A DNA stretch of 30,464 bases from a virus (taxonomy: Duplodnaviria; Caudoviricetes), in the IMG/VR virus record IMGVR_UViG_3300029179_000020, positions 1 through 30,464 of that record; one strand, 5' to 3'. The position numbers and the translations under genes are program-made. Each line of letters begins with the position of its first letter. Position 1 is the stretch's first letter. The notes under the pieces were generated by a model. The model saw nothing but the letters and a program-made list of their open reading frames with translations, had not been told where the DNA came from and made no database searches. Below, piece by piece: positions 1,421 through 29,356 of this stretch.

Positions 1421-2155
1421 TTATTTTTTACTATCGATTAACTTCAGTGCCTGCGCATGTGAGATCGACATGTCCGCATCTCCCGACCCTAGCTCTGCGT
1501 CAATCTTAAACCCTAGCTTTTGATAAAAACCAATCGCATCCTTGAGCGCCACAACCTTGACACCTTTTTTGTGCGCTGCCGTAGCAATTTTAAGAACCTC
1601 AACCACAGCTTGTGTGCCAGCACCTTTGACACCAGTACCTGCTAACGATTCAGGGCTTGCAACTAAATAATCAATCTCTGTTCCTTTTTTAGAGTGTGAG
1701 TACAATATGCCCGCGGCTGTCTCACCATTGGAGTCTTTTACCGTAGCTGCTATCTTGCTTGAATAGTTAGCATTTAGCTCACGCACCACGGCATCCCAAA
1801 CATCTGCGTTAAATAAGAGTTTATCTTTAGTTGCCTTGTCCTTTGCTACTTTCGCTAGCTTTCTGGCTTTAGCGGCGTTTTTTCTCGCAACATCTTTTGT
1901 TAAATCCTCAACGAGCCCGGGGCTCAGGCTAGAGACTGCGGATGTTTTAACGGGGGTAGCAGCAACGGGGGCGGGCTCACGGGCATCGGCACCCGATTTC
2001 TTTGAAACTGTTCTTTTAGGCAATGCTTTCGCGGCACCTGCAAGAGTTTCAAGCCCTTTAGCATTATTGTTTTGCGCATCAAATCGGCACTTGTAGCTCT
2101 TACGAATACAAGTATTGCCACATACGCGGCTTTTATCTGAACAGTTTTTTGTCAT
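1421..2155 (-). CDS. GNAT-family acetyltransferase with N-terminal four-Cys leader
   Basis: EIDYLVASP...GVKGAGT (acetyl-CoA motif A-like)...AIGFYQKLGF; leader KNCSDKSRVCGNTCIRKSYKCRFD. Confidence 0.75.
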   Translation of the reverse strand: MTKNCSDKSRVCGNTCIRKSYKCRFDAQNNNAKGLETLAGAAKALPKRTVSKKSGADAREPAPVAATPVKTSAVSSLSPGLVEDLTKDVARKNAAKARKLAKVAKDKATKDKLLFNADVWDAVVRELNANYSSKIAATVKDSNGETAAGILYSHSKKGTEIDYLVASPESLAGTGVKGAGTQAVVEVLKIATAAHKKGVKVVALKDAIGFYQKLGFKIDAELGSGDADMSISHAQALKLIDSKK

Positions 2156-2191
2156 AATGCTATCTGGGTGGATAACTTACTTTCAAACAAA

Positions 2192-2217
2192 AGCGACGCA
2201 TATGTAAACACGTCGCT
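2192..2217 (-). terminator. AGCGAC-family hairpin downstream of the capsid gene
   Basis: AGCGACG...CGTCGCT with an A-run on the left (U-run on the minus strand). Confidence 0.7.
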
Positions 2218-2257
2218 CTCTAATCTATTTAAGTAGCGTGTATGTGTGTGTCTTATT

Positions 2258-3232
2258 CTAGTTGCTTCCGTTTAAAATAAGTGCGGCAGCCCCAACGAGA
2301 CCAGAAGTTCCCAGCCCTACTGGACAAATCGATCTATAGGTCATGAGTTCGCCTTTGAAGCTACGGATATCAGCATCGAAACGCTCTTCGGTCGAAGCAA
2401 CACCGCCATTGAGCATGTAGCTGTAGAAAGCAGCAGGACGACCCATGTCAGCATCGGTAGCGGGCATGAAACCAGCTTCGATAGCGGTGGGTTGGTAGAA
2501 TAGGATGGAATTGCTATACATGGGTTCCAGAGCACCTGTTACGGTGTTGAGAACGCGGCGACGGCTGACGCGAACTTCTTCTACGTCAAAAATCGTAGCC
2601 AGAAGCTCAGGGGTCATGGCAGTTCCGCGAGCCATAAATTCACGTAATCTTTTGTTGCGCTTGAGGCTCAGGTAGTCTTTCTCAGAGAGAAGCAATCTGT
2701 TAGCTTTGATACCAACTTGGTTAGTAATAACGGTGTGGAGTGTATCAAACAGAATTTCAGGGTCAGAGGTTGCTTTGTTGAATTGGTCAGCAGCAGCGAC
2801 GCTAATAACGTTGCTAGCTTCGTAGTTAGCGGGGTTTTGAACTTCAGCAGCAACTTGAACTTCCCAAGACTGCATCATGCGAGCAGCAGCATTAACGACA
2901 GCTAAGCGACGTAAGTCTAATTTGCTGCTAGCGGTTTGAGCAATCTTGTCTTGCTCTTCAGTAACAGACCAACCAATAGCTTCTTGATGTAGAGCAAAGC
3001 TACGGGTAGTGTAGCCAACATCAACACGTTTGAAAGCAGCGCCAGGTGAGCGACGTAAGTCAGCAGAAGCGAAGGACTCTTTGCCGAATTGTAAAATCTG
3101 TCCAGCTAGCGAGTTAACGTTAACTAAAGGAGCGATATAAGATGCCACACCATCAGCATTCATGTAGCCGAGGCAAAATTCTGTCAGTATGGGATCGAAA
3201 TGGTGTAAAGAAGAAAGACTGCTCTGCATCAT
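2258..3232 (-). CDS. Major capsid protein
   Basis: 324 aa; N-term DPILTEFCLGY...PLVNV...G.I..FGKESF pattern of Mu-like/gpE-type capsids; AAAGTA box at 3278-3283. Confidence 0.85.
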   Translation of the reverse strand: MMQSSLSSLHHFDPILTEFCLGYMNADGVASYIAPLVNVNSLAGQILQFGKESFASADLRRSPGAAFKRVDVGYTTRSFALHQEAIGWSVTEEQDKIAQTASSKLDLRRLAVVNAAARMMQSWEVQVAAEVQNPANYEASNVISVAAADQFNKATSDPEILFDTLHTVITNQVGIKANRLLLSEKDYLSLKRNKRLREFMARGTAMTPELLATIFDVEEVRVSRRRVLNTVTGALEPMYSNSILFYQPTAIEAGFMPATDADMGRPAAFYSYMLNGGVASTEERFDADIRSFKGELMTYRSICPVGLGTSGLVGAAALILNGSN

Positions 3233-3300
3233 AGTAGTAATTTCAGTTGTAGGATTTCTAGAAAAACATTTACAATTTACTTTTGGTAAACGTCGCTAAA

Positions 3301-3346
3301 TTCAGTATTTCCACGGATGTGTTTTACGATAGGTGTAAGCCATAAT
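3301..3346 (+). promoter_or_regulatory. Palindromic-operator promoter (TTCAGTA-N4-CACGGATG-N21-CATAAT)
   Basis: Same architecture at 9449, 15922, 20556 and 25273(-). Confidence 0.7.
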
Positions 3347-3383
3347 ATAAGAACAAAGCAAAGAGCACACACACACACACACC

Positions 3384-3518
3384 ATGACACAACAACAAAT
3401 TAAACAAGCCATTATCTCCTGGGTAGCTCAGCTTTCTGAGGACAACACCCCTGAAGAAGAACAAAACATCACTGCCATCGTTGGCAACTTGCTCGCTCGC
3501 TTAAACAATAGCCTCTAA
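3384..3518 (+). CDS. Small hypothetical protein, 44 aa (MTQQQIKQAIISW...)
   Basis: Not in the ORF track; follows the promoter and a CA tract (3366-3382); ends at the AAGGAG RBS of the next gene. Confidence 0.7.
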   Translation: MTQQQIKQAIISWVAQLSEDNTPEEEQNITAIVGNLLARLNNSL

Positions 3519-3530
3519 GGAGATACTTAC

Positions 3531-4055
3531 ATGAAAACAGTTATTGCCGTAAGCGGAAAAGCACGTGTTGGTAAGACAACCTTTGCCAACTTAGCTCAAA
3601 CCATGGGATGTGACATAGTTGACATTAGCAAATTCCTAGCTCGTATGACAGTTGCGCGTTTGGAGATGGCGGGGCAGCTTGACTTAGACATTGTTGATGC
3701 CCGCAAAGATTGGATAGCTATTGATGCCCGCACTCTGCGCCAACATATCATTGACACTGGCAACGCCCTAGACCACATTATTCCTATGTGGGTTGTGTCG
3801 GAGATTCTAAGAAGTGATAAAGACACTATTGTTATTCCCTCTGTGAAAGACATGGGGCAGGTTGCCAGCATAAAGTTGTTGGCGGGTAAGCTCTTTAGAG
3901 TGAAAACCCTTGAGATTGTAAACTCACGTGTGCCACACGTTAGCGACGTGAGAACTCCATTTGCTTGCAACGTTGTGATTGATAACAATAGTAGTAAGCA
4001 CGAGTTTTATGACAAAATTATTGCTTATTTTCAAACACTTAAGGAGATTAGATAA
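3531..4055 (+). CDS. P-loop kinase, deoxynucleoside monophosphate kinase-like
   Basis: Walker A VIAVSGKARVGKTT; C-term VIDNNSS; RBS AAGGAG. Confidence 0.7.
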   Translation: MKTVIAVSGKARVGKTTFANLAQTMGCDIVDISKFLARMTVARLEMAGQLDLDIVDARKDWIAIDARTLRQHIIDTGNALDHIIPMWVVSEILRSDKDTIVIPSVKDMGQVASIKLLAGKLFRVKTLEIVNSRVPHVSDVRTPFACNVVIDNNSSKHEFYDKIIAYFQTLKEIR

Positions 4056-4057
4056 AT

Positions 4058-4699
4058 ATGCCGGTTCCTTCTGGTTACGTCAATGCTGCTGACTTACCTA
4101 TCATTGCTACGCCCGACAGTAATGATTACCTTATTGGTGTCGCAAACGTGGGTGGCACACCCAGCTTATTCCGCACGCAAACAGCCCCAGGTGGTAGCGG
4201 AGGTCTAGAGCGCAGAGCACACGAGACTACACCTGCTTTCAACACAACGACTGAGACCACGGGCTTTCAAAACTTTGTTGTCTCGGCTTTTATTGACAAC
4301 CATGCCCTAACAAGGTTTGTTGTCGCAAGTAGCTCTCCCATTCCAACACACGTTTGGGTTCAGTATAGTATGGCTTCAACAGGAACATTATCGTCTAATT
4401 TGAGCGGTAACTACAGCTATGCCGACAGCGGAGCTACGTCACCCTATAGACACTTTCATAACGGTAGTTCATCTAACGTGGGCATACTTTCCAACACTAG
4501 CGACACCTTATTTAATTATTGGGGCGCAGGTGGTTATGATGGCACAGGAGGCTGGACAGCTAGTTCTGATTTATATTTCTCAGTATTTGCAGACTCGGGT
4601 GTTCTTTATCTGGAAGTCGGCACAGGTGGTACGCTAGACCCGGGTGTTTTTCAAGCCTATGTCATGGCTGGATTCTTCAGTGACGGTGGTGAGACCTAA
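4058..4699 (+). CDS. Hypothetical protein, possibly virion/fiber-associated
   Basis: RBS AAGGAG; G/S/T-rich; N-term ADLP...DYLIGV resembles fiber attachment segments. Confidence 0.5.
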   Translation: MPVPSGYVNAADLPIIATPDSNDYLIGVANVGGTPSLFRTQTAPGGSGGLERRAHETTPAFNTTTETTGFQNFVVSAFIDNHALTRFVVASSSPIPTHVWVQYSMASTGTLSSNLSGNYSYADSGATSPYRHFHNGSSSNVGILSNTSDTLFNYWGAGGYDGTGGWTASSDLYFSVFADSGVLYLEVGTGGTLDPGVFQAYVMAGFFSDGGET

Positions 4700-5979
4700 G
4701 CTTCTGGCTCTTCCGTAGGTGTTTCACTCAATTCTGGCTCAGCGGGCGATTCCTCTAATTGGAGCGCCTCCTGAGCTTTTTCAATCTTGAATCCTAGCGC
4801 AGACTCTAGAACCGATTGTGGGACTTCGTATCCGAGTTGTGATAAGTCTTTGGCGTATTGCAACGCTTGCTCACCCGTTAGTTGTTGCTCCAAGTCACTG
4901 AAGTCAAAGCTTAAGGTAGGAACCTCTGCTTTCTCCCCGAAATTTAGCTCCACAAGCCACTTCACAAGAGTTTGATTCAGTAGCGTCACTATCTCGTCCG
5001 CTAATTGTTTAGCTCTACGAACCCTAACGCTGTCAGCAACTTGGTCGCGGCTTCTGCTACCGCCGTCGCCTGCACTCCCTACCGATTCTTCGCCGCACAT
5101 GAGCATAGAGATTTGCTTATCAACATAAGCCAGGATTTCTGAAAACACCTCTGCTTTACCGTCGCTGTTGAGCCAATCAACACTTACGCCTTCGGGAATT
5201 GTCATGGATGAGCGTTCGCCAAGGGACTGCATCGCTAGTTGTAAGTTGTCTATTTCTTCATCCTGCAAGCCTATAGGGTAGGTAGCGATTGCCGTGGGGT
5301 TAACGTGCTTGTCCGCATAAAGTCTCCAGTCCTTTAACTTCATGCTTCGCGCTTCCACCAGGTCAAGCAATTGTGCCCCCAAACCAGCACCATAGATATC
5401 TTGGTTATCGTGCGTCCAATATCGAAATAGTACGAGCGAACGAGGAACCACTGGCGTACCATCAATTTGGTCGTTTCTGTCGATTGCTCTGACCTCAAGC
5501 TCGTTCGTATCTTTTGTTAGACTAAAACCTATGCGACGTGCATCCCGAGGTATAAGATTGCTAACAATTGCCTGCCCCTCAACTAAGCGCCAGCTACATT
5601 CCGCAACTTCCATACCTGTAATAAGCGCTGTAGCAAGGTGTCGTACGACCGATTTTAGTCCGCGACTAGGTTCGCCACTAACGGTGCCGTTTTTGGTTAC
5701 GTTGTCGCCATTGCCAAGGTCGGCTAACACGTCTGTGACAAACTTATTAATTTTCTTCGTGCTGCCTTGCACAACCCAATCGCGCGACATTATTTCTGAC
5801 ACGAGCTTATCAAAACAAGCCAGCACCACGGGGTCAAGCAAAAGATCGCGGTAGATTTCACTAGCACGGGTTGCGGTCTTGCCTCTACGCTTGAGGATTT
5901 TATCGTTGCGAGAGATTAAACCTAGACGACTATACGCGGTAAATGGGCTTCTTGTCTCCGATAGTATTTTCCCTAACAT
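4696..5979 (-). CDS. Portal protein, Mu gp29-like (DUF935)
   Basis: 427 aa; DPVVLAC, IYGAGLG, WRLYADK, IPEGVSVDWL, DKQISMLMCGE, TLLNQTLVKWLVELNFG. Confidence 0.85.
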   Translation of the reverse strand: MLGKILSETRSPFTAYSRLGLISRNDKILKRRGKTATRASEIYRDLLLDPVVLACFDKLVSEIMSRDWVVQGSTKKINKFVTDVLADLGNGDNVTKNGTVSGEPSRGLKSVVRHLATALITGMEVAECSWRLVEGQAIVSNLIPRDARRIGFSLTKDTNELEVRAIDRNDQIDGTPVVPRSLVLFRYWTHDNQDIYGAGLGAQLLDLVEARSMKLKDWRLYADKHVNPTAIATYPIGLQDEEIDNLQLAMQSLGERSSMTIPEGVSVDWLNSDGKAEVFSEILAYVDKQISMLMCGEESVGSAGDGGSRSRDQVADSVRVRRAKQLADEIVTLLNQTLVKWLVELNFGEKAEVPTLSFDFSDLEQQLTGEQALQYAKDLSQLGYEVPQSVLESALGFKIEKAQEALQLEESPAEPELSETPTEEPEA

Positions 5980-6091
5980 ATAAAAGTTAAACCCTCTGAG
6001 TTTAATGTCTACATCATAAGTGTTGTCTTACTTTGCAGGCAAATTAAAATCGATTGCTCAAGGTGCAACCGAGAAAACCTGTTAGTATCTT

Positions 6092-8365
6092 CTAACTTTC
6101 CTCTAACTCTACGATGTTTCTACCGTTTTCAAAACGTTTGCTTTTGACTTTGAACTTAGTGCCCGCGTTAAATAGGATTTCACCTTCGTCAGCCTCGTTC
6201 TTGTAGTCATCCATGGGTTTGCCACCTGTGCCTTTGAGTTTAGGGGTAATGACAATCTCGACATCTCCCCCTGTCCAATTCCCTTTTAGCTTTCCTTCCA
6301 GGAAGTCAGATTGTGCCCCCACAGTAGTTGACATCAACCCTTTAGTTCTCCAATCCTTTCCTTCTGTGAATTGAGAAAGGAAAGCATCTGCACCATCACC
6401 CAGGTTCATTACTCTTCTTAATGTGGGGGGTACCTCTGGACGTGTTTCAAGGTCGTTATACTTCCCAGCCACAAGCCCCCAATCCGCAGAAGGAAGTTTG
6501 CTTATGCCCGCTACCATATCCTTTGCCATGGCTTTTATGTCGTTGTTGGTAACGGATGAAGGATTATAGAGCGCGCGATTAAGGTACTGAAACGCTGTCT
6601 CCTTCGCGTTAGCTCCTTTTAGTCCTTCTAAGGGGCTAATATACGCTGCTACTGCCGTGGCTTGGTTGTCGTCCATTCCTTTGGCTGCATTCTTTAATCT
6701 TGCAACTTTACGGTTATGATTATTCTTGCTAAATTGAACGCTATTTTCTAGGACGCTGTCGTAGTCTGACTCGTGCAGATAATTACCATCACTTTTAGGG
6801 TAAGTAAAATTCCCTACCTTCTTAGCTGGACTTGTGACACACTTAGAGCGGTTGAACACAATCATGTGTTTTTCTTCTGGCGTGTCCATCTCAGCCGTCA
6901 TAACCCCATCATAACCCAAGCTCATGGCTACAGCCGCGGGGTCTACCGTATCTACATTTGCCCTCTTAAGTTTATCCCTCAGCTTTTTATAGCTTTCAGC
7001 ATCCATGACTTTTGCATCGGTCTTAAGTCCCACTGCGAACACTGAACCATCCTTACCCGCGTACCATTCAGCTGTGCTTGCGGCTTCACTATTGTTAAAA
7101 CCTTTTGCAGCCGTAGCGACATAGTTACCATCACCATACACTCCTTTACCTACGAAATAATCATCGGCTGTAGCCTCTGCAAAGTTTTCTGCAATCCCAT
7201 CGCCCTCTTTAATACCCCTAAAACCGTAAATCTTGGTCTGTTTTGCAACATCATCCGCATTTCTTACGATTTGAGGTGCTTGCCTGTAGCTGGCGTATTC
7301 CGGTCTTGACATGAGCGCACCTACTGTCAACTCCTCGTCAAAACCTACGCCTGCTATAGAATTAAGACGTGATTTTAAAGCCTCGCCAGATATGTCACTT
7401 TCAATGATATCTCTGAGGTTCTGGTCAGTGTCCACGCTGACGAGAGCATCCAGGTGTTGCTTACTAGCTGAGGAGAGTTTGCTGTTGTTTTGTCTTGCTT
7501 GCTTACCTTTCTCTACATATTCCTTGTTCTGCTCGGCGTATATAGCTTGCACTTTTTTCTTAATGCCCTCTATCTTAGCCTCAGACGTTGTTTTCTCTTT
7601 TTCCGCAGCTTTTTTAATCTTTGCGGGAGAGGAAGAGCCTAGAATAAGTACATAATCATACTGGTCAGCTACATCTCCCTTGAGAGGTGTGTCCCCTGCT
7701 TGCGTCTCTAGTTCCAACTCTAAATTTAATTTTTTCAGAGGGTCTGTTTCCTCCTGCATCTTCTGCTTAAGTACCGCACTCTTGTAGTACTGTGCCGCAA
7801 TCTCTTTTACGATTCCTGTGGAGCGAGCTTCATATTGGGCTTTATCTAAACCACTGGAGTCTCCACTACTTAACAAATCCGCCGCCACTAATCTCTTAGC
7901 GTTTGCCTCTTCCGTTATCTTCTCTAAGTGCTTTTTAACTTCTTCAACACCTCCCTTTGCTTGAATATCTTCTAAGTTTTTAATGTAGTTTTCTCGTGCA
8001 GCCTTTACTTTAGCCATCTCAGGCTCTAGCTGTTGAAGTAAGGCTTCTTCTTTTTTCGCTGCTGCCTTCGTTGGGGGGTAAGTATTGCTAACACGGAACA
8101 GGTCTTTGATTAGGGCTGTGTTACCTGTACGCAAGGCTGTAAAAGCTCTTGCTGTGTCTTCCGCAGACTTGTCGATATCTACTGTGCTATCAGGTGCTTT
8201 AGCCGCAGGTGCTTTAGCCGCTTTTGCCTTAGTTTTCTTAGCAGCAGTTGCAAGCGTTGTTAGTCCTGCATTAGAGGTAGCGGGTGGGTCAAAGCGACAT
8301 TTATAGGATTTTTTAATACAAGTGTCACCGCATACGCGGGATTTTTCTGAACAATTCTTAGCCAT
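6092..8365 (-). CDS. Large protein: four-Cys leader, helical region and two ADP-ribosyltransferase-like domains
   Basis: C-terminal R-S-E ART (LNRAL, TLRR, GLMSTT, DEGEILF..GTKFKV); middle domain FRG...GVYGDGNY...AEWYA...GYDGV...MIVFN is a PARP-like ART pattern; ATG 8365 preferred by match to the GNAT leader. Confidence 0.75.
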   Translation of the reverse strand: MAKNCSEKSRVCGDTCIKKSYKCRFDPPATSNAGLTTLATAAKKTKAKAAKAPAAKAPDSTVDIDKSAEDTARAFTALRTGNTALIKDLFRVSNTYPPTKAAAKKEEALLQQLEPEMAKVKAARENYIKNLEDIQAKGGVEEVKKHLEKITEEANAKRLVAADLLSSGDSSGLDKAQYEARSTGIVKEIAAQYYKSAVLKQKMQEETDPLKKLNLELELETQAGDTPLKGDVADQYDYVLILGSSSPAKIKKAAEKEKTTSEAKIEGIKKKVQAIYAEQNKEYVEKGKQARQNNSKLSSASKQHLDALVSVDTDQNLRDIIESDISGEALKSRLNSIAGVGFDEELTVGALMSRPEYASYRQAPQIVRNADDVAKQTKIYGFRGIKEGDGIAENFAEATADDYFVGKGVYGDGNYVATAAKGFNNSEAASTAEWYAGKDGSVFAVGLKTDAKVMDAESYKKLRDKLKRANVDTVDPAAVAMSLGYDGVMTAEMDTPEEKHMIVFNRSKCVTSPAKKVGNFTYPKSDGNYLHESDYDSVLENSVQFSKNNHNRKVARLKNAAKGMDDNQATAVAAYISPLEGLKGANAKETAFQYLNRALYNPSSVTNNDIKAMAKDMVAGISKLPSADWGLVAGKYNDLETRPEVPPTLRRVMNLGDGADAFLSQFTEGKDWRTKGLMSTTVGAQSDFLEGKLKGNWTGGDVEIVITPKLKGTGGKPMDDYKNEADEGEILFNAGTKFKVKSKRFENGRNIVELEES

Positions 8366-8408
8366 GGTCACGTAAAAAAGCTTCTGTAGTACTTTCTGGA
8401 TAAAACAA

Positions 8409-8464: not shown

Positions 8465-9133
8465 CTAGATAGCGCGACCGATGCGGAGTTCAACCGCTAG
8501 CCATTCGCCAGCGCCAACAACAGCTTCCATAGCGTAACCAATTAAGGTTTGAGTAGAGGCAGAGCGAGGTACAACACGACCCGTAGCAGCTTCGACCGTT
8601 AGAGCAGCGCCAACAGCAATAGCAGCGCCGGACTCCATACGTACGCGACCTTCGAGAGCAATTGTTCTATCATAGGCGTATTCTGGACGATATCGGTCTT
8701 GCAAAGGCAAGCGAGAGATATTGCCGTATTGGTAAGAATAGTCAGGGCGGAGTTCAGCACCTACGTAAAACACGTTAGCAGCTTCGCCAGCGGTTAAGGT
8801 AACGGCAGCAGGGGTGAAAGCAGTCTTAACTTGGTAAATACCAGCTTGTCCACCAGCGTTAACGGCTTGAGGAGCGGTCAAGGTGAAACGAGCACCAACA
8901 GCATAAGCCTGAACAGCAATCGCAGCAACGGAAGGAATTGCGGCGCGAACGGCGGGGTCTTCAGAGCGCATAAGTGTAACACCGTAGATAGCATCGGTGT
9001 TAGCAGCGGGCAGAGTACCTAAGAACGTGATAGCGCGTCCACTAGGGAGGGTAGGGCTTACGTTGCTTACGGTACGAGTTGCTTCGGGGGCAACAATATC
9101 GAGTACGAGGTATCTGCTTTCGTTAATAGCCAA
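8465..9133 (-). CDS. Capsid decoration/cement protein (DUF2190-like) with an internal insertion
   Basis: Ala-rich; C-term GAAIAVGAALT...G.V...IGYAMEA.GAGEWLAVEL; TTG start; AAAGTA box at 9170-9175. Confidence 0.65.
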   Translation of the reverse strand: MAINESRYLVLDIVAPEATRTVSNVSPTLPSGRAITFLGTLPAANTDAIYGVTLMRSEDPAVRAAIPSVAAIAVQAYAVGARFTLTAPQAVNAGGQAGIYQVKTAFTPAAVTLTAGEAANVFYVGAELRPDYSYQYGNISRLPLQDRYRPEYAYDRTIALEGRVRMESGAAIAVGAALTVEAATGRVVPRSASTQTLIGYAMEAVVGAGEWLAVELRIGRAI

Positions 9134-16371: not shown

Positions 16372-16986
16372 ATGTCTATTTTCTTTCAAAGCGATTCTAA
16401 TTCAGATTTTCTTGGCAACGGCTACAACATGCGCAGTGCCTTGATTAATAACAACACCGTCAGTATCCAAACAGACATCACGTGGCAACAACAGTACAAG
16501 ATTAAGAATATTTTGTTACGCGATACTAATACAGACATCTGGTACGGAGCGCGCTTTGAGTTTGGTTACAACGGTAAGGAAAACTTTGGTTTCTGGAGCA
16601 ATGTTAACCCCTTCGCAAGCACAGCTGCTAAACAAAATGGGTTGAAACACAAGGCGATACTCGCGAAGGATAACAACCAACCAACGCAATACTTTAACGA
16701 GTTTAAACTAACTAAGCAGTCCGTAAAGCTGGGTAACGTATATGCTCATAAAGGGTACCACGGAGGGATTGAGGTAGATATAGACGGGTTAGCAAAACTG
16801 CTTGATACTTCTGACTTTGAAGTCGTCATTAGCCCAGATTGCTTCAACGACGTTATCGTCCTCCACACAACCAAGTTTGTAGAGCCACCCCAAGGTCAGC
16901 CAAAGGAGGCACCTGAACCAGGCTTAGCACTAGGGTTGATTTGTATTGCTTGCTTGTGCGCTATTGCTAAGAAACTAAGTAAATAA
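16372..16986 (+). CDS. PEP-CTERM-like sorting-domain protein
   Basis: C-term APEP, hydrophobic helix GLALGLICIACLCAIA, basic KKLSK; no clear N-terminal signal peptide. Confidence 0.65.
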   Translation: MSIFFQSDSNSDFLGNGYNMRSALINNNTVSIQTDITWQQQYKIKNILLRDTNTDIWYGARFEFGYNGKENFGFWSNVNPFASTAAKQNGLKHKAILAKDNNQPTQYFNEFKLTKQSVKLGNVYAHKGYHGGIEVDIDGLAKLLDTSDFEVVISPDCFNDVIVLHTTKFVEPPQGQPKEAPEPGLALGLICIACLCAIAKKLSK

Positions 16987-17324: not shown

Positions 17325-18726
17325 TCTCCGTAATTGATACTTGTGTTAAGGCGAATGGTGAAACGTTACTGGAAGCTAAGATGTTGAGTGAGTTAGCTGT
17401 GGTAATTTGGAACTTAATTGTTCCGTTGACCGCGGTATTGTTCACCACAAATCCGTTAGCCATGACCGATGTCCCAGTCGAATCTGTGATCCCAATCGCG
17501 CAAACAGTAGGAGCAGTTCCACTGGACATGACAGGTACAATCATTGCAGACGATGCGTTGGTTCCAGTGTTAGTTGTTACGTGGATATCAACTTTGTAAA
17601 AACCCGCTCGAGGTAAAGTAAAAACTCCTGTTCCTGTATTTAAGGAAATTGAAGCCGTACTCCCCGTTACGTTAGTTGCGGCAACGTTCCAAATAATATC
17701 GGTCGCAGTGTTTGCCGCGATTGCTTGGGCGGAGGTTCCACGTTCAGACCTTACACTGGCAGCTTGAGGTTTTTTTACAAACCCTTCCATGCTAATGGTT
17801 TTGGAGGAAGACCCCACTGTTACTTGTCCGGTTCCCACGGCTCCGAGGGATGTAACACCAGTACCACCAGCGGAAATCGAGACAGCACCGTTAACCGCAG
17901 GCAATATATTGACCGCACCAGAGGAGTTTAAACCAATTTCAGTATTTCCAGACGCTCCCGCACTTAATCTAAGAGTACCAGAAGTCATACCGAAACCGAC
18001 GGTGGTAGTGCCTGTACTCGTGCCTGTTAATGCTACTGCCCCCGCACCCGTTGGCTGGATCGTAATAGTACCAGAGGAGGTAGAGCCAATAGTTGTAGCA
18101 CCTGTGCCTGTCCCAGAGACGAACACAGTAGAGTTACCATTTGCGGGGGCAATATTAATGTTACCTGTGGAGTTAACCCCTATGTTTGTAGCATTTGCGC
18201 CCGTAGGTGACAAAGTCAGGTTGCCAGACTGAGCCTGTATCGTGAGCGTCCCGCTAGAGGTGTTAATAAGAGCACCCCCGGTTTGAGAAAACGTCATGAT
18301 GCCAGCAGGGTTAGAAGCTGAGGACGTGAAGGTAAAGCGTGTCGCGGCGTTGTTTACTGCCGTCCCACTAGCTGCACCACCGTTTGGGATGTTAAATAAG
18401 ATTGACCCTACGGCGTTACCTCTGGAGTTTCCTGTAGAAAGTGTTACGTTACCTGCGGCAATGTTAGTCCCCGTACCCGAAGACCCCGCAGTAACGCTAT
18501 AGTTAACGCCGGCTGTGTTAGCAGCTTGGATGCCAAAGTTACATGCGACTTGGGTTGCTTGGGTAGCGGGAAAGGATATACCTGTTGCGTTAAGTACCGC
18601 AAGCGTCGCGCTGTTTCGCACAAGCCTAACATCAACCGCATCGAGCGTTCCCAACAAGTTAGTGGAACCATCAACCAACCCACGGTCGCCTGTAAAACCC
18701 CACGTAGGATAGAAAAAACTGCTCAT
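17317..18726 (-). CDS. Tail fiber / receptor-binding protein
   Basis: G/T/S/A-rich beta repeats; C-term TGVFTLPRAGFYKV (C1q-like head pattern). Confidence 0.7.
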   Translation of the reverse strand: MSSFFYPTWGFTGDRGLVDGSTNLLGTLDAVDVRLVRNSATLAVLNATGISFPATQATQVACNFGIQAANTAGVNYSVTAGSSGTGTNIAAGNVTLSTGNSRGNAVGSILFNIPNGGAASGTAVNNAATRFTFTSSASNPAGIMTFSQTGGALINTSSGTLTIQAQSGNLTLSPTGANATNIGVNSTGNINIAPANGNSTVFVSGTGTGATTIGSTSSGTITIQPTGAGAVALTGTSTGTTTVGFGMTSGTLRLSAGASGNTEIGLNSSGAVNILPAVNGAVSISAGGTGVTSLGAVGTGQVTVGSSSKTISMEGFVKKPQAASVRSERGTSAQAIAANTATDIIWNVAATNVTGSTASISLNTGTGVFTLPRAGFYKVDIHVTTNTGTNASSAMIVPVMSSGTAPTVCAIGITDSTGTSVMANGFVVNNTAVNGTIKFQITTANSLNILASSNVSPFALTQVSITEIG

Positions 18727-28209: not shown

Positions 28210-29304
28210 CTACATGCACTTCTTTATTGCTTCAGCATAGGAAATGCCTTCTTTAGCTTGAATTTTCTTCGCTTTAGCGTGTAGCTTGCCTCTGTCATCG
28301 AGCGAAGCATCTTCGTCTTCCATTTGCTCACTGTAGCGCTTTTCAGAGAAATCAACTTTAGTTGGCAAGCTAGAGAGCAAGCCCTTGAACCAGTCGTGTG
28401 CGGTCTCGGTTCCTTCACTGAAGTCTTCACCAGACATGAGCTTGAGCATAACCATGAAATCAGCAATCTTACTAACGTCCATCGAAGGCAAGATGCGACC
28501 TTCGGATTGTAAGCCTTCACAGAAAGAAAGTGCTTCACCACGTAGTAATTGCGCTTGCTGAGCTTCGATAATCTTTTTAAGAGCAGCAATCTCAGCGTTT
28601 TCTTGTACTTCGGGCTTAACCTTAGCAACAGGTTCTTCCGCCTTAGCTTTGGCTTTCTTCTCCGCAAAATCCATCATGTCAACTTCCTCAACAACTGTTT
28701 CCTCAATAGCTTCGGAGAAATCAGCATCAAGCTCAGCTAGTAGCTCGTTTTCATCTAGCAAATCAATTTCCTCTACCGCTTGGTCAAGGTTTTGCTCTTC
28801 AGCAGTCTCAACTGCTTGCAATTCTTGGTTTTCCATAGTATTTTCTGTATTGAACGTTCCCTCTACTTTCGGGTTAGCGTCGCTGTCATCGAAAATAGGC
28901 TCACTGAATTCTGGTAAGTCCAATGTCAAACCCTTAACAGCAGGAATATGTACAGCCGCAATGTGTCGCAGTACAAGATTACCAGGAGAAGGATTCACAG
29001 GAGAGTTAGCCCCATAGAAACCGCTTGAGATGCGTCTCCATCTGCCCGCTGCCATATCCGCCAACATATCACCCGTAAATTTCACATCAGCCCAGAGGCT
29101 TAAACCGTTGCGCCAAACTCTTTTAACCCAACCTCTCGCGGGCTGTGTGTCATCGTGGGATACGATAAAAGGAACAGTATCAGGTTGAAAGTTTTCCACG
29201 ACTTGCTGCAAGTCTGACTCACTATAGTAACGTTCATTACCTGCGGAGTCTATTTGTATGCCACCTCGAAAGATTTCAAGTTTTTTTGTTAGAGATAGAG
29301 TCAT
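28210..29304 (-). CDS. Prohead protease/scaffold, Mu I (gp32)-like
   Basis: LEIFRGG, VSHD..PARGWV, RRISSGFY, LRHIAAV..PAVKGL; acidic scaffold ending ISYAEA; ATG 29304 lies downstream of the AAAGTA box (29331-29336). Confidence 0.85.
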   Translation of the reverse strand: MTLSLTKKLEIFRGGIQIDSAGNERYYSESDLQQVVENFQPDTVPFIVSHDDTQPARGWVKRVWRNGLSLWADVKFTGDMLADMAAGRWRRISSGFYGANSPVNPSPGNLVLRHIAAVHIPAVKGLTLDLPEFSEPIFDDSDANPKVEGTFNTENTMENQELQAVETAEEQNLDQAVEEIDLLDENELLAELDADFSEAIEETVVEEVDMMDFAEKKAKAKAEEPVAKVKPEVQENAEIAALKKIIEAQQAQLLRGEALSFCEGLQSEGRILPSMDVSKIADFMVMLKLMSGEDFSEGTETAHDWFKGLLSSLPTKVDFSEKRYSEQMEDEDASLDDRGKLHAKAKKIQAKEGISYAEAIKKCM

Positions 29305-29320
29305 ATGTGAAAACAAGTAA

Positions 29321-29349
29321 AGCGACACTATACTTTCGTAGGTGTCGCT
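29321..29349. promoter_or_regulatory. AGCGAC hairpin enclosing the AAAGTA box of the protease gene
   Basis: AGCGACACTA-TACTTT-CG-TAGGTGTCGCT. Confidence 0.6.
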
Positions 29350-29356
29350 CACGGTG

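Follow-up and report, generated by a model that had tools for sequence, protein, structure and literature searches.

Phage T4 packages and injects the ADP-ribosyltransferase Alt, and its capsid-targeting signal is removed by the head protease in gp21 cleavage. The T4 internal proteins Ip1-3 carry an N-terminal capsid-targeting signal, one short element heading unrelated and variable accessory proteins that are packaged and injected (passages of PMC12373910). Polymorphic MuF toxins combine a conserved N-terminal part with a variable C-terminal enzyme and are encoded near head genes (passages of PMC12226406). Polyvalent proteins (Iyer et al. 2017, PMC5512222) and head-packaged ADP-ribosyltransferases (ARTs; PMC9503650) are described, in the passages considered here, from a late context and with predicted injection; their domains include ART, kinase, GNAT, zincin peptidase, ParB and LPD1, and the same passages report polyvalent proteins to be scarce in cyanobacteria. 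Here we analyse a contig of a tailed phage (Caudoviricetes), IMG/VR record IMGVR_UViG_3300029179_000020, on which two otherwise unrelated proteins share an N-terminal Cx6Cx3Cx6C module. The window analysed is the whole viral contig of 30,464 bp, ~22% complete according to CheckV. Our results support that this leader is a real, portable module on polymorphic phage enzymes, and the two window proteins are very probably late products carried in the virion. The module resembles the T4 signal in being one short element on unrelated proteins, and its carriers share cargo classes, late context and predicted injection with the polyvalent proteins.

The two proteins and their leaders are located as follows:
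1421..2155, minus strand: 244-amino-acid (aa) protein with the four-cysteine module, a basic Ala/Lys/Pro linker and a GNAT-like domain; isoelectric point (pI) 9.7
2027..2155, minus strand: leader copy 1, residues 1-43, with Cys5, 12, 16 and 23 at 2087-2143
6092..8365, minus strand: 757-aa protein with the four-cysteine module, a basic linker, a helical region and two ART-like domains; ATG at 8365
8237..8365, minus strand: leader copy 2, residues 1-43, with the cysteines at 8297-8353 and a predicted beta-hairpin at 9-12/15-18

BLASTP of the 244-aa protein against the 757-aa protein returned a single significant match, confined to residues 1-38 (26/38 identical, pairwise E value 1e-15), and nothing aligns beyond the first 38-43 residues. 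The near-identical starts reported in the original prediction, which had been made from the DNA letters alone, are borne out by this match, and both open reading frames (ORFs) are built as it had described, with an Ala/Lys/Pro linker followed by an unrelated catalytic region (GNAT versus two ARTs). A six-frame scan of the window with relaxed four-cysteine spacing gave seven matches, among which only these two are plausible gene starts. Word-index searches with each window protein returned only the query itself. Over the first 26 codons the leaders are identical at 56 of 78 nucleotides, and the leader peptide is under selection because 12 of the 16 differing codons are synonymous. This pattern bears on the explanation that the shared start is a by-product of a gene-start duplication which moved the late promoter and ribosome site and left a functionless peptide. 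The nearly equal distance of an AAAGTA box from both genes (22 and 24 nt) is in its favor, but module copies recur internally within polyproteins and the module family spans many phages. Codon pattern and internal copies largely refute this explanation, which we regard as highly improbable.

A two-sequence profile searched against 1.84 billion representatives was too narrow: its six matches comprised the two queries, two real relatives (P0003 and P0006) and two spurious sequences. Pattern scans yielded sets of 87 and 125 loci from IMG/VR and of 59 from metagenomes; the last two sets contain many chance matches. An iterated profile recovered 229 modules in 62,256 reading frames and no reversed-sequence decoy at the same threshold. 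The profile search suggested in the original prediction thus led well beyond the two proteins, to modules heading kinases, HNH nucleases, ARTs, esterases and others. The family searches were motif-anchored, which biases the sample to GKxCG forms and fixes Cys2 and Cys4. A genome holds 1-19 module copies (48 of 50 submitted records, all of which were picked for holding a module match). At least 50 aa follow the module in 215 of 229 viral and metagenome cases, the median net charge being +3 to +6, and the cargo of 199 units falls into 51 clusters. Among 55 proteins searched against Pfam (three of them non-carrier controls), about 20 are kinase-like and the rest include HNH, zeta toxin, PGDYG, DnaJ, LPD1/zincin, hydrolase and ART domains. 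A second set of 40 proteins added LRAT, exonuclease, cutinase/esterase, HipA-like and ART domains, with 24 of the 40 giving no Pfam match. The leader itself (34 members) matched no family in Pfam, PHROGs or PDB sequences, the best hits being scattered at E 0.003 in two members; a fold search with the leader model against 48,161 chains gave none at Z ≥2, a result that is uninformative for a model of 41 residues. No prior description of the module was found in the literature searched, most subscription journals lying outside its coverage. One carrier, G037 (L401-L407), is a complete myovirus-like genome of 118.6 kb with 19 module copies, and its capsid and portal belong to the families seen in the window. 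In Pinkberry virus LS07-2018-MD00 (19.6 kb; L005:14958-15203 and 17494-17985), small proteins bear a single module or two in tandem but no enzyme that could be recognized.

Published proteomics place module carriers in the particles of two cultured cyanophages. The CL131 virion proteome comprises 23 proteins of 149 ORFs (Table S5, PMC6293099). In the 103.9 of 112.8 kb of CL131 that were scanned, three clear carriers were found, gp044, gp047 and gp048, the last holding the module four times; all three belong to the virion proteome, as does the weak carrier gp045 (5.3 bits). With 175 spectra for gp048 and 123 for gp045, these proteins exceed the capsid protein with 86 (PMC6293099). The association between carriers and virion gives a Fisher p of 0.003, though the carrier genes are clustered. 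The CL131 carriers are basic (pI 9.1-9.7), while most other virion proteins are acidic. In the same genome, the portal gp012 (L095:8800-12981) appears by eye to be fused to a MuF-like region and further domains.

The second phage, S-CBWM1, was reached through a weak tblastn match; matches to Escherichia and Streptomyces phages in that search (E 4-7) were taken as chance, and L002 had no motif match. S-CBWM1 encodes five carriers, namely three kinases, gp174 and gp106. According to passages of PMC10665884, which cite Xu et al. 2018, its virions contain the APH, ChoK and Rio2 kinases and NMNAT. All three of these kinases carry the module, which those passages do not mention; gp173, the fourth kinase, has no module, and the passages do not list it among the virion proteins. 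The carrier gp174 is annotated 'virion structural protein'. The proposal that carriers are virion proteins thus agrees with the proteomics of CL131 and, through the secondary report just cited, of S-CBWM1. The module-bearing form of the kinase gp161 starts 57 nt upstream of its annotated start, and the GenBank starts of both gp161 (L001:20001-20873) and gp113 (L004:21399-22322) lie downstream of the likely true starts, cutting the module off. A different, two-cysteine leader, DFTRC.R..G..YGT.G.C, heads the S-CBWM1 virion NMNAT gp39, gp165 and two G011 proteins (L003:26693-27352; L001:23070-23543; L424:15877-17467) and is probably a parallel tag.

The original prediction had assigned the four cysteines to zinc. 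Of the family variants, 160 have both Cys1 and Cys3 and 70 have neither, with only three discordant cases (concordant 230/233), and in the reciprocal test Cys2 and Cys4 were kept in 63 of 63 matches. These counts come from anchored patterns and related sequences; the evidence is strong, though not independent. As Cys1 and Cys3 disappear together and Cys2 and Cys4 are kept, the sequences fit a module with two disulfides, C1-C3 and C2-C4, rather than a four-ligand zinc site. AlphaFold models the leader as a beta-hairpin at residues 9-18 (predicted local distance difference test, pLDDT, 74). A Zn(Cys)4 finger serving as a phage-specific address for the portal, capsid or scaffold protein would agree with the invariance of the four cysteines in 34 aligned leaders, although these were selected for them, and metal binding is favored by assembly in the cytoplasm. 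Position 3 of the 70 double-loss variants is Tyr in 22, His in 21, Gly in 13, Phe in 10 and another residue in 4; the histidines could be reconciled with zinc, but the 45 variants with Tyr, Gly or Phe are unable to ligate it. Moreover, the module serves two unrelated head types, as 14 of 48 records encode a Mu-type protease, 12 a DUF2213 protein and none both, and it also occurs on non-phage exported proteins. We therefore consider a zinc address improbable.

The phage specificity that had been proposed for the leader did not hold, since many exported proteins of bacteria contain its core, CxxGKxCGxxCIx5C (~810 matching stretches of GTDB genomes, estimated from 10 of 64 parts). In 120 sampled GTDB matches, the core is at the C-terminus in 97 and comes after a hydrophobic, signal-like N-terminal stretch in 84; at least seven cysteines are present in 97 of these 120 compared with 4 of 229 viral modules. 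The bacterial form is a C-terminal Cys-rich appendage of exported SNase, SH3 and lipoproteins for which no Pfam family was found, and it differs from the phage module in this position, in its cysteine number and in standing behind signal-like peptides. The phage profile scores the bacterial cores with a median of 25.6 bits. Partner domains in 24 scanned bacterial proteins were SNase (4), SH3 (3), metallo-beta-lactamase fold (1) and Excalibur (1), and also GmrSD_C; the ESM Atlas independently gives SH3, SNase and BON clusters at marginal template modelling (TM) scores. The module was probably borrowed by phages from exported bacterial proteins, or is common to both. Because it accompanies exported nucleases and wall-binding domains and is positively charged, its ligand may be a polyanion.

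In DUF2213-type phages the motif RxD, sought within 25 aa upstream of the module, stands 3-17 residues before the first cysteine in 31 of 39 non-redundant modules, compared with 63 of 1106 background windows. It precedes none of nine modules in Mu-protease phages, and in Mu-type phages the first cysteine lies at most 12 residues from the start in 10 of 18 non-redundant modules. RxD, module and cargo recur as a unit along the polyproteins CL131 gp048, P0007 and P0008. Judging by gene position and by the repetition of the motif, DUF2213 may be a head protease with RxD as its cleavage site, and because this site lies upstream of the module, the module would be retained after cleavage. The window leaders contain no [FY][SAC]E motif, and a motif F[SA]E/DF[SA] ahead of modules in Mu-type phages was not supported, being present in only two of nine cases. 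The Mu-type head protease/scaffold of G037 holds a module between its protease and scaffold parts. The Mu-type proteases (window 28210-29352, L417-L423) are long and acidic with 4-9 [FY][SAC]E repeats each, candidates for a self-cleavage motif.

Position relative to the cleavage site also separates the module from the T4 signal: the latter is a linear peptide (passages of PMC12373910), whereas the module is predicted to be a folded four-cysteine hairpin which lies downstream of the probable cut and so would be kept rather than clipped. Furthermore, the module recurs inside polyproteins, occurs with both Mu-type and DUF2213-type heads and has cellular relatives. Retention is, at the same time, what would be expected if the proteins were virion cargo but the module were not their loading signal. 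It could be a stabilizing cap, or act after packaging in ejection order or in binding the host envelope or DNA, with loading left to the linker, a propeptide or other parts. Such a role would suit an appendage known from exported bacterial SNase, SH3, metallo-beta-lactamase-fold and Excalibur proteins and disulfides that suit the oxidising outside, and there is a membrane-like helix after the module in 25 of 46 DUF2213 cases and 10 of 19 G037 cases. However, no such helix follows in any of 24 Mu-type cases, the short distance from start to first cysteine in the window and in the 10 Mu-type modules mentioned above leaves no propeptide, and the module is the only part common to both window proteins. 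We regard this explanation as a possible but rather doubtful one.

We lean cautiously towards the reading that a borrowed basic hairpin module tethers polymorphic enzymes inside the assembling head, the loading function of the module itself being deduced from the patterns above. According to this reading, a small basic cysteine module, predicted to form a hairpin stapled by two disulfides, is fused ahead of many unrelated enzymes, and late-made cargo would enter the prohead. Cleavage at RxD by the head protease would, in DUF2213-type phages, place the module at the N-terminus of the mature protein; in Mu-type phages including the window phage, the module would reach the same N-terminal position by being placed directly after the start Met. 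Kept rather than clipped, it would bind the cargo by electrostatic attraction first to the acidic scaffold and later to the packaged DNA, and the tethered enzymes would travel with the genome into the next host, where the GNAT and the two ARTs might acetylate and ADP-ribosylate host targets early in infection. Of the original proposal of a loading tag for polymorphic host-modifying enzymes, a portable module on varied enzymes and its carriers in virions remain, without zinc and without phage specificity.

Several observations weigh against a tethering tag. Disulfides are not normally formed in the cytoplasm, where heads are assembled, and the stapled form may matter only after lysis. The core is common in exported bacterial proteins, in which a role as capsid tag is impossible, and seven other Mu-type proteases lack the module found in that of G037. 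Neither the CL131 virion protein gp046 nor, in the first 20 kb scanned of S-CREM2, a virion kinase and an HNH protein carry the module, the virion NMNAT of S-CBWM1 has the two-cysteine leader instead, and the S-CBWM1 carrier gp106 is annotated 'hypothetical' only. Finally, carriers sit in structural gene clusters, and their presence in virions may reflect other signals or co-purification, a caveat for virion-associated enzymes that passages of PMC10665884 also raise.

The cargo domains of the window proteins are as follows:
1424..1882, minus strand: GNAT-like cargo, ~residues 92-244 (PF13508 E 0.012 and PF00583 E 0.035, both under the cut-off)
6806..7363, minus strand: ART-like domain 1, residues 335-520, ART-PolyVal/PARP-like
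6095..6733, minus strand: ART-like domain 2, residues 545-757, VIP2/Alt-type

Residues 92-219 of the 244-aa protein match phrog_1917 'virion structural protein' (E 7e-6), and its GNAT-like cargo is 34% identical over 65 aa to the last cargo of the module-bearing polyprotein P0007. The sole relative of the 757-aa protein, P0003, has the same leader (35% over 485 aa). In ART domain 1, R383, GxGxYGxGxY at 406-415 and E498 are conserved with P0003; the ESM Atlas gives a feature score of 0.91 to ART-PolyVal-containing clusters and, between predicted models, a TM of 0.71 to part of a MuF 'minor capsid protein' cluster. In ART domain 2, R651, S679 and E727-x-E729 are conserved with P0003, residues which we take to be the R-S-ExE catalytic triad of an Arg-specific ART of the Alt/VIP2 type; PF03496 matches the 757-aa protein at E 0.002 (residues 663-744) and P0003 at E 1.5e-7. 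AlphaFold gave no usable model of the ART half (pLDDT 39), so that Pfam, P0003 conservation and the ESM Atlas form the basis of the ART calls, and two ARTs in the 757-aa protein are moderately, not firmly, supported. No relatives of the window cargo domains were found among the fetched viral ORFs.

At least two conflict domains in a late context, as in polyvalent proteins, occur in the 757-aa protein with its two ART-like domains, whereas the 244-aa protein has one domain only; P0007, P0008 and CL131 gp048 also show a polyvalent layout. The difference lies in the repeated module which, together with a likely head-protease site, heads each unit here. No cysteine module is described in the passages of PMC5512222 considered, and the word 'cysteine' does not occur in them. 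Like MuF toxins, the module carriers end in variable enzymatic domains, and both window genes are linked to head genes. ART domain 1 is also similar to a domain that MuF proteins contain, but, as had been noted originally, the window has no MuF gene: PF04233 was found neither in the two proteins nor elsewhere in the window, which is ~22% complete. The module core has 19 residues and occurs in 1-19 copies per genome, compared with a domain of 112 positions and one gene for MuF (passages of PMC12226406). No small downstream immunity gene stands beside either window gene among ORFs of at least 70 aa; downstream of the ART gene lies the portal gene and downstream of the GNAT gene a hairpin and a convergent gene. 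The idea that the module stands in for MuF was rejected, as two of the four near-complete carrier genomes tested also encode MuF. The module belongs neither to the MuF toxins nor to the clipped T4-type signals.

The window encodes Mu-type head proteins, namely a portal, a gpI-type protease/scaffold, a phrog_1005 capsid protein, a cement protein and a gp36 adaptor, besides a terminase and probable tape-measure and tail proteins, in scrambled order and on both strands. The GNAT gene sits after the capsid gene and the ART gene between the cement and portal genes:
2258..3232, minus strand: major capsid protein (phrog_1005 E 1e-50), AAAGTA box 45 nt upstream
4696..5979, minus strand: Mu-type portal (PF06074 E 2e-55), AAAGTA box 49 nt upstream
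8465..9133, minus strand: cement/decoration protein (PF09956 E 1.5e-5)
28210..29352, minus strand: Mu gpI-type head protease/scaffold, acidic (72 D+E versus 39 K+R), nine [FY][SAC]E motifs; its true start is probably the ATG at 29304
2178..2183, minus strand: AAAGTA box of the GNAT gene, 22 nt before the ATG, a putative late promoter element
8390..8395, minus strand: AAAGTA box of the ART gene, 24 nt before the ATG

AAAGTA lies 26-49 nt upstream of the capsid, portal, cement, adaptor, tape-measure, tube and terminase genes. The carriers had been said to share this box with capsid and portal at 22-24 nt; this spacing applies to the carriers, but not to the other two genes (45 and 49 nt). Of 27 listed starts, among them two alternative protease starts and three mis-set starts, 16 have the box in the 70 nt upstream, compared with 3.4% of random 70-nt windows. 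The window as a whole shows no enrichment of the hexamer (33 seen against 29.7 expected), and it is absent before the antirepressor-like, kinase and HNH genes of the window. We propose that AAAGTA is a late promoter element. The structural genes are scattered over both strands, most with their own box and no operon. The host of the window phage is likely a cyanobacterium, because the named module carriers are cyanophages and the capsid protein of the window has a homologue in S-CBWM1; no close relatives of the window capsid protein were found in IMG/VR.

Three further features of the window were seen. Eleven AGCGAC...GTCGCT inverted repeats, mostly intergenic (438, 1388, 2192, 8409, 9723, 11334, 16306, 16994, 24508, 24956 and 29321), are probably terminators or mobile repeat ends accompanying the scrambled gene order. 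Within 1-1377, ORF 107-439 repeats the start of the antirepressor-like ORF 577-1377 (phrog_2657) in truncated and slightly diverged form, and the 70 nt upstream of both are identical. The 204-aa protein at 16372-16986 ends in a PEP-CTERM-like tail with a VPEP-type motif, a hydrophobic helix and a basic end, which is unusual for a phage.

In conclusion, the module links kinases and other enzymes that cyanophage particles hold with no known entry route, and RxD is likely where DUF2213 head proteases cut. The module predicts virion-cargo accessory genes from sequence alone, among them genes that lose it through their annotated starts, and the loading question can be tested in two cultured phages, CL131 and S-CBWM1. 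We tentatively speculate, and would not be surprised to be wrong, that a 19-residue disulfide hairpin, acquired from exported proteins of bacteria, serves as a portable tag sufficient for head loading and co-ejection in two unrelated cyanophage head systems, and thereby defines a large undescribed polymorphic effector system. If this were true, a phage would carry up to 19 tagged enzymes, some as protease-cut polyproteins, which would explain the kinases and nucleases in cyanophage particles and provide a compact tool for loading proteins into virions. The module also suggests that cyanophages, which have been reported to be poor in polyvalent proteins, inject a considerable set of effectors.

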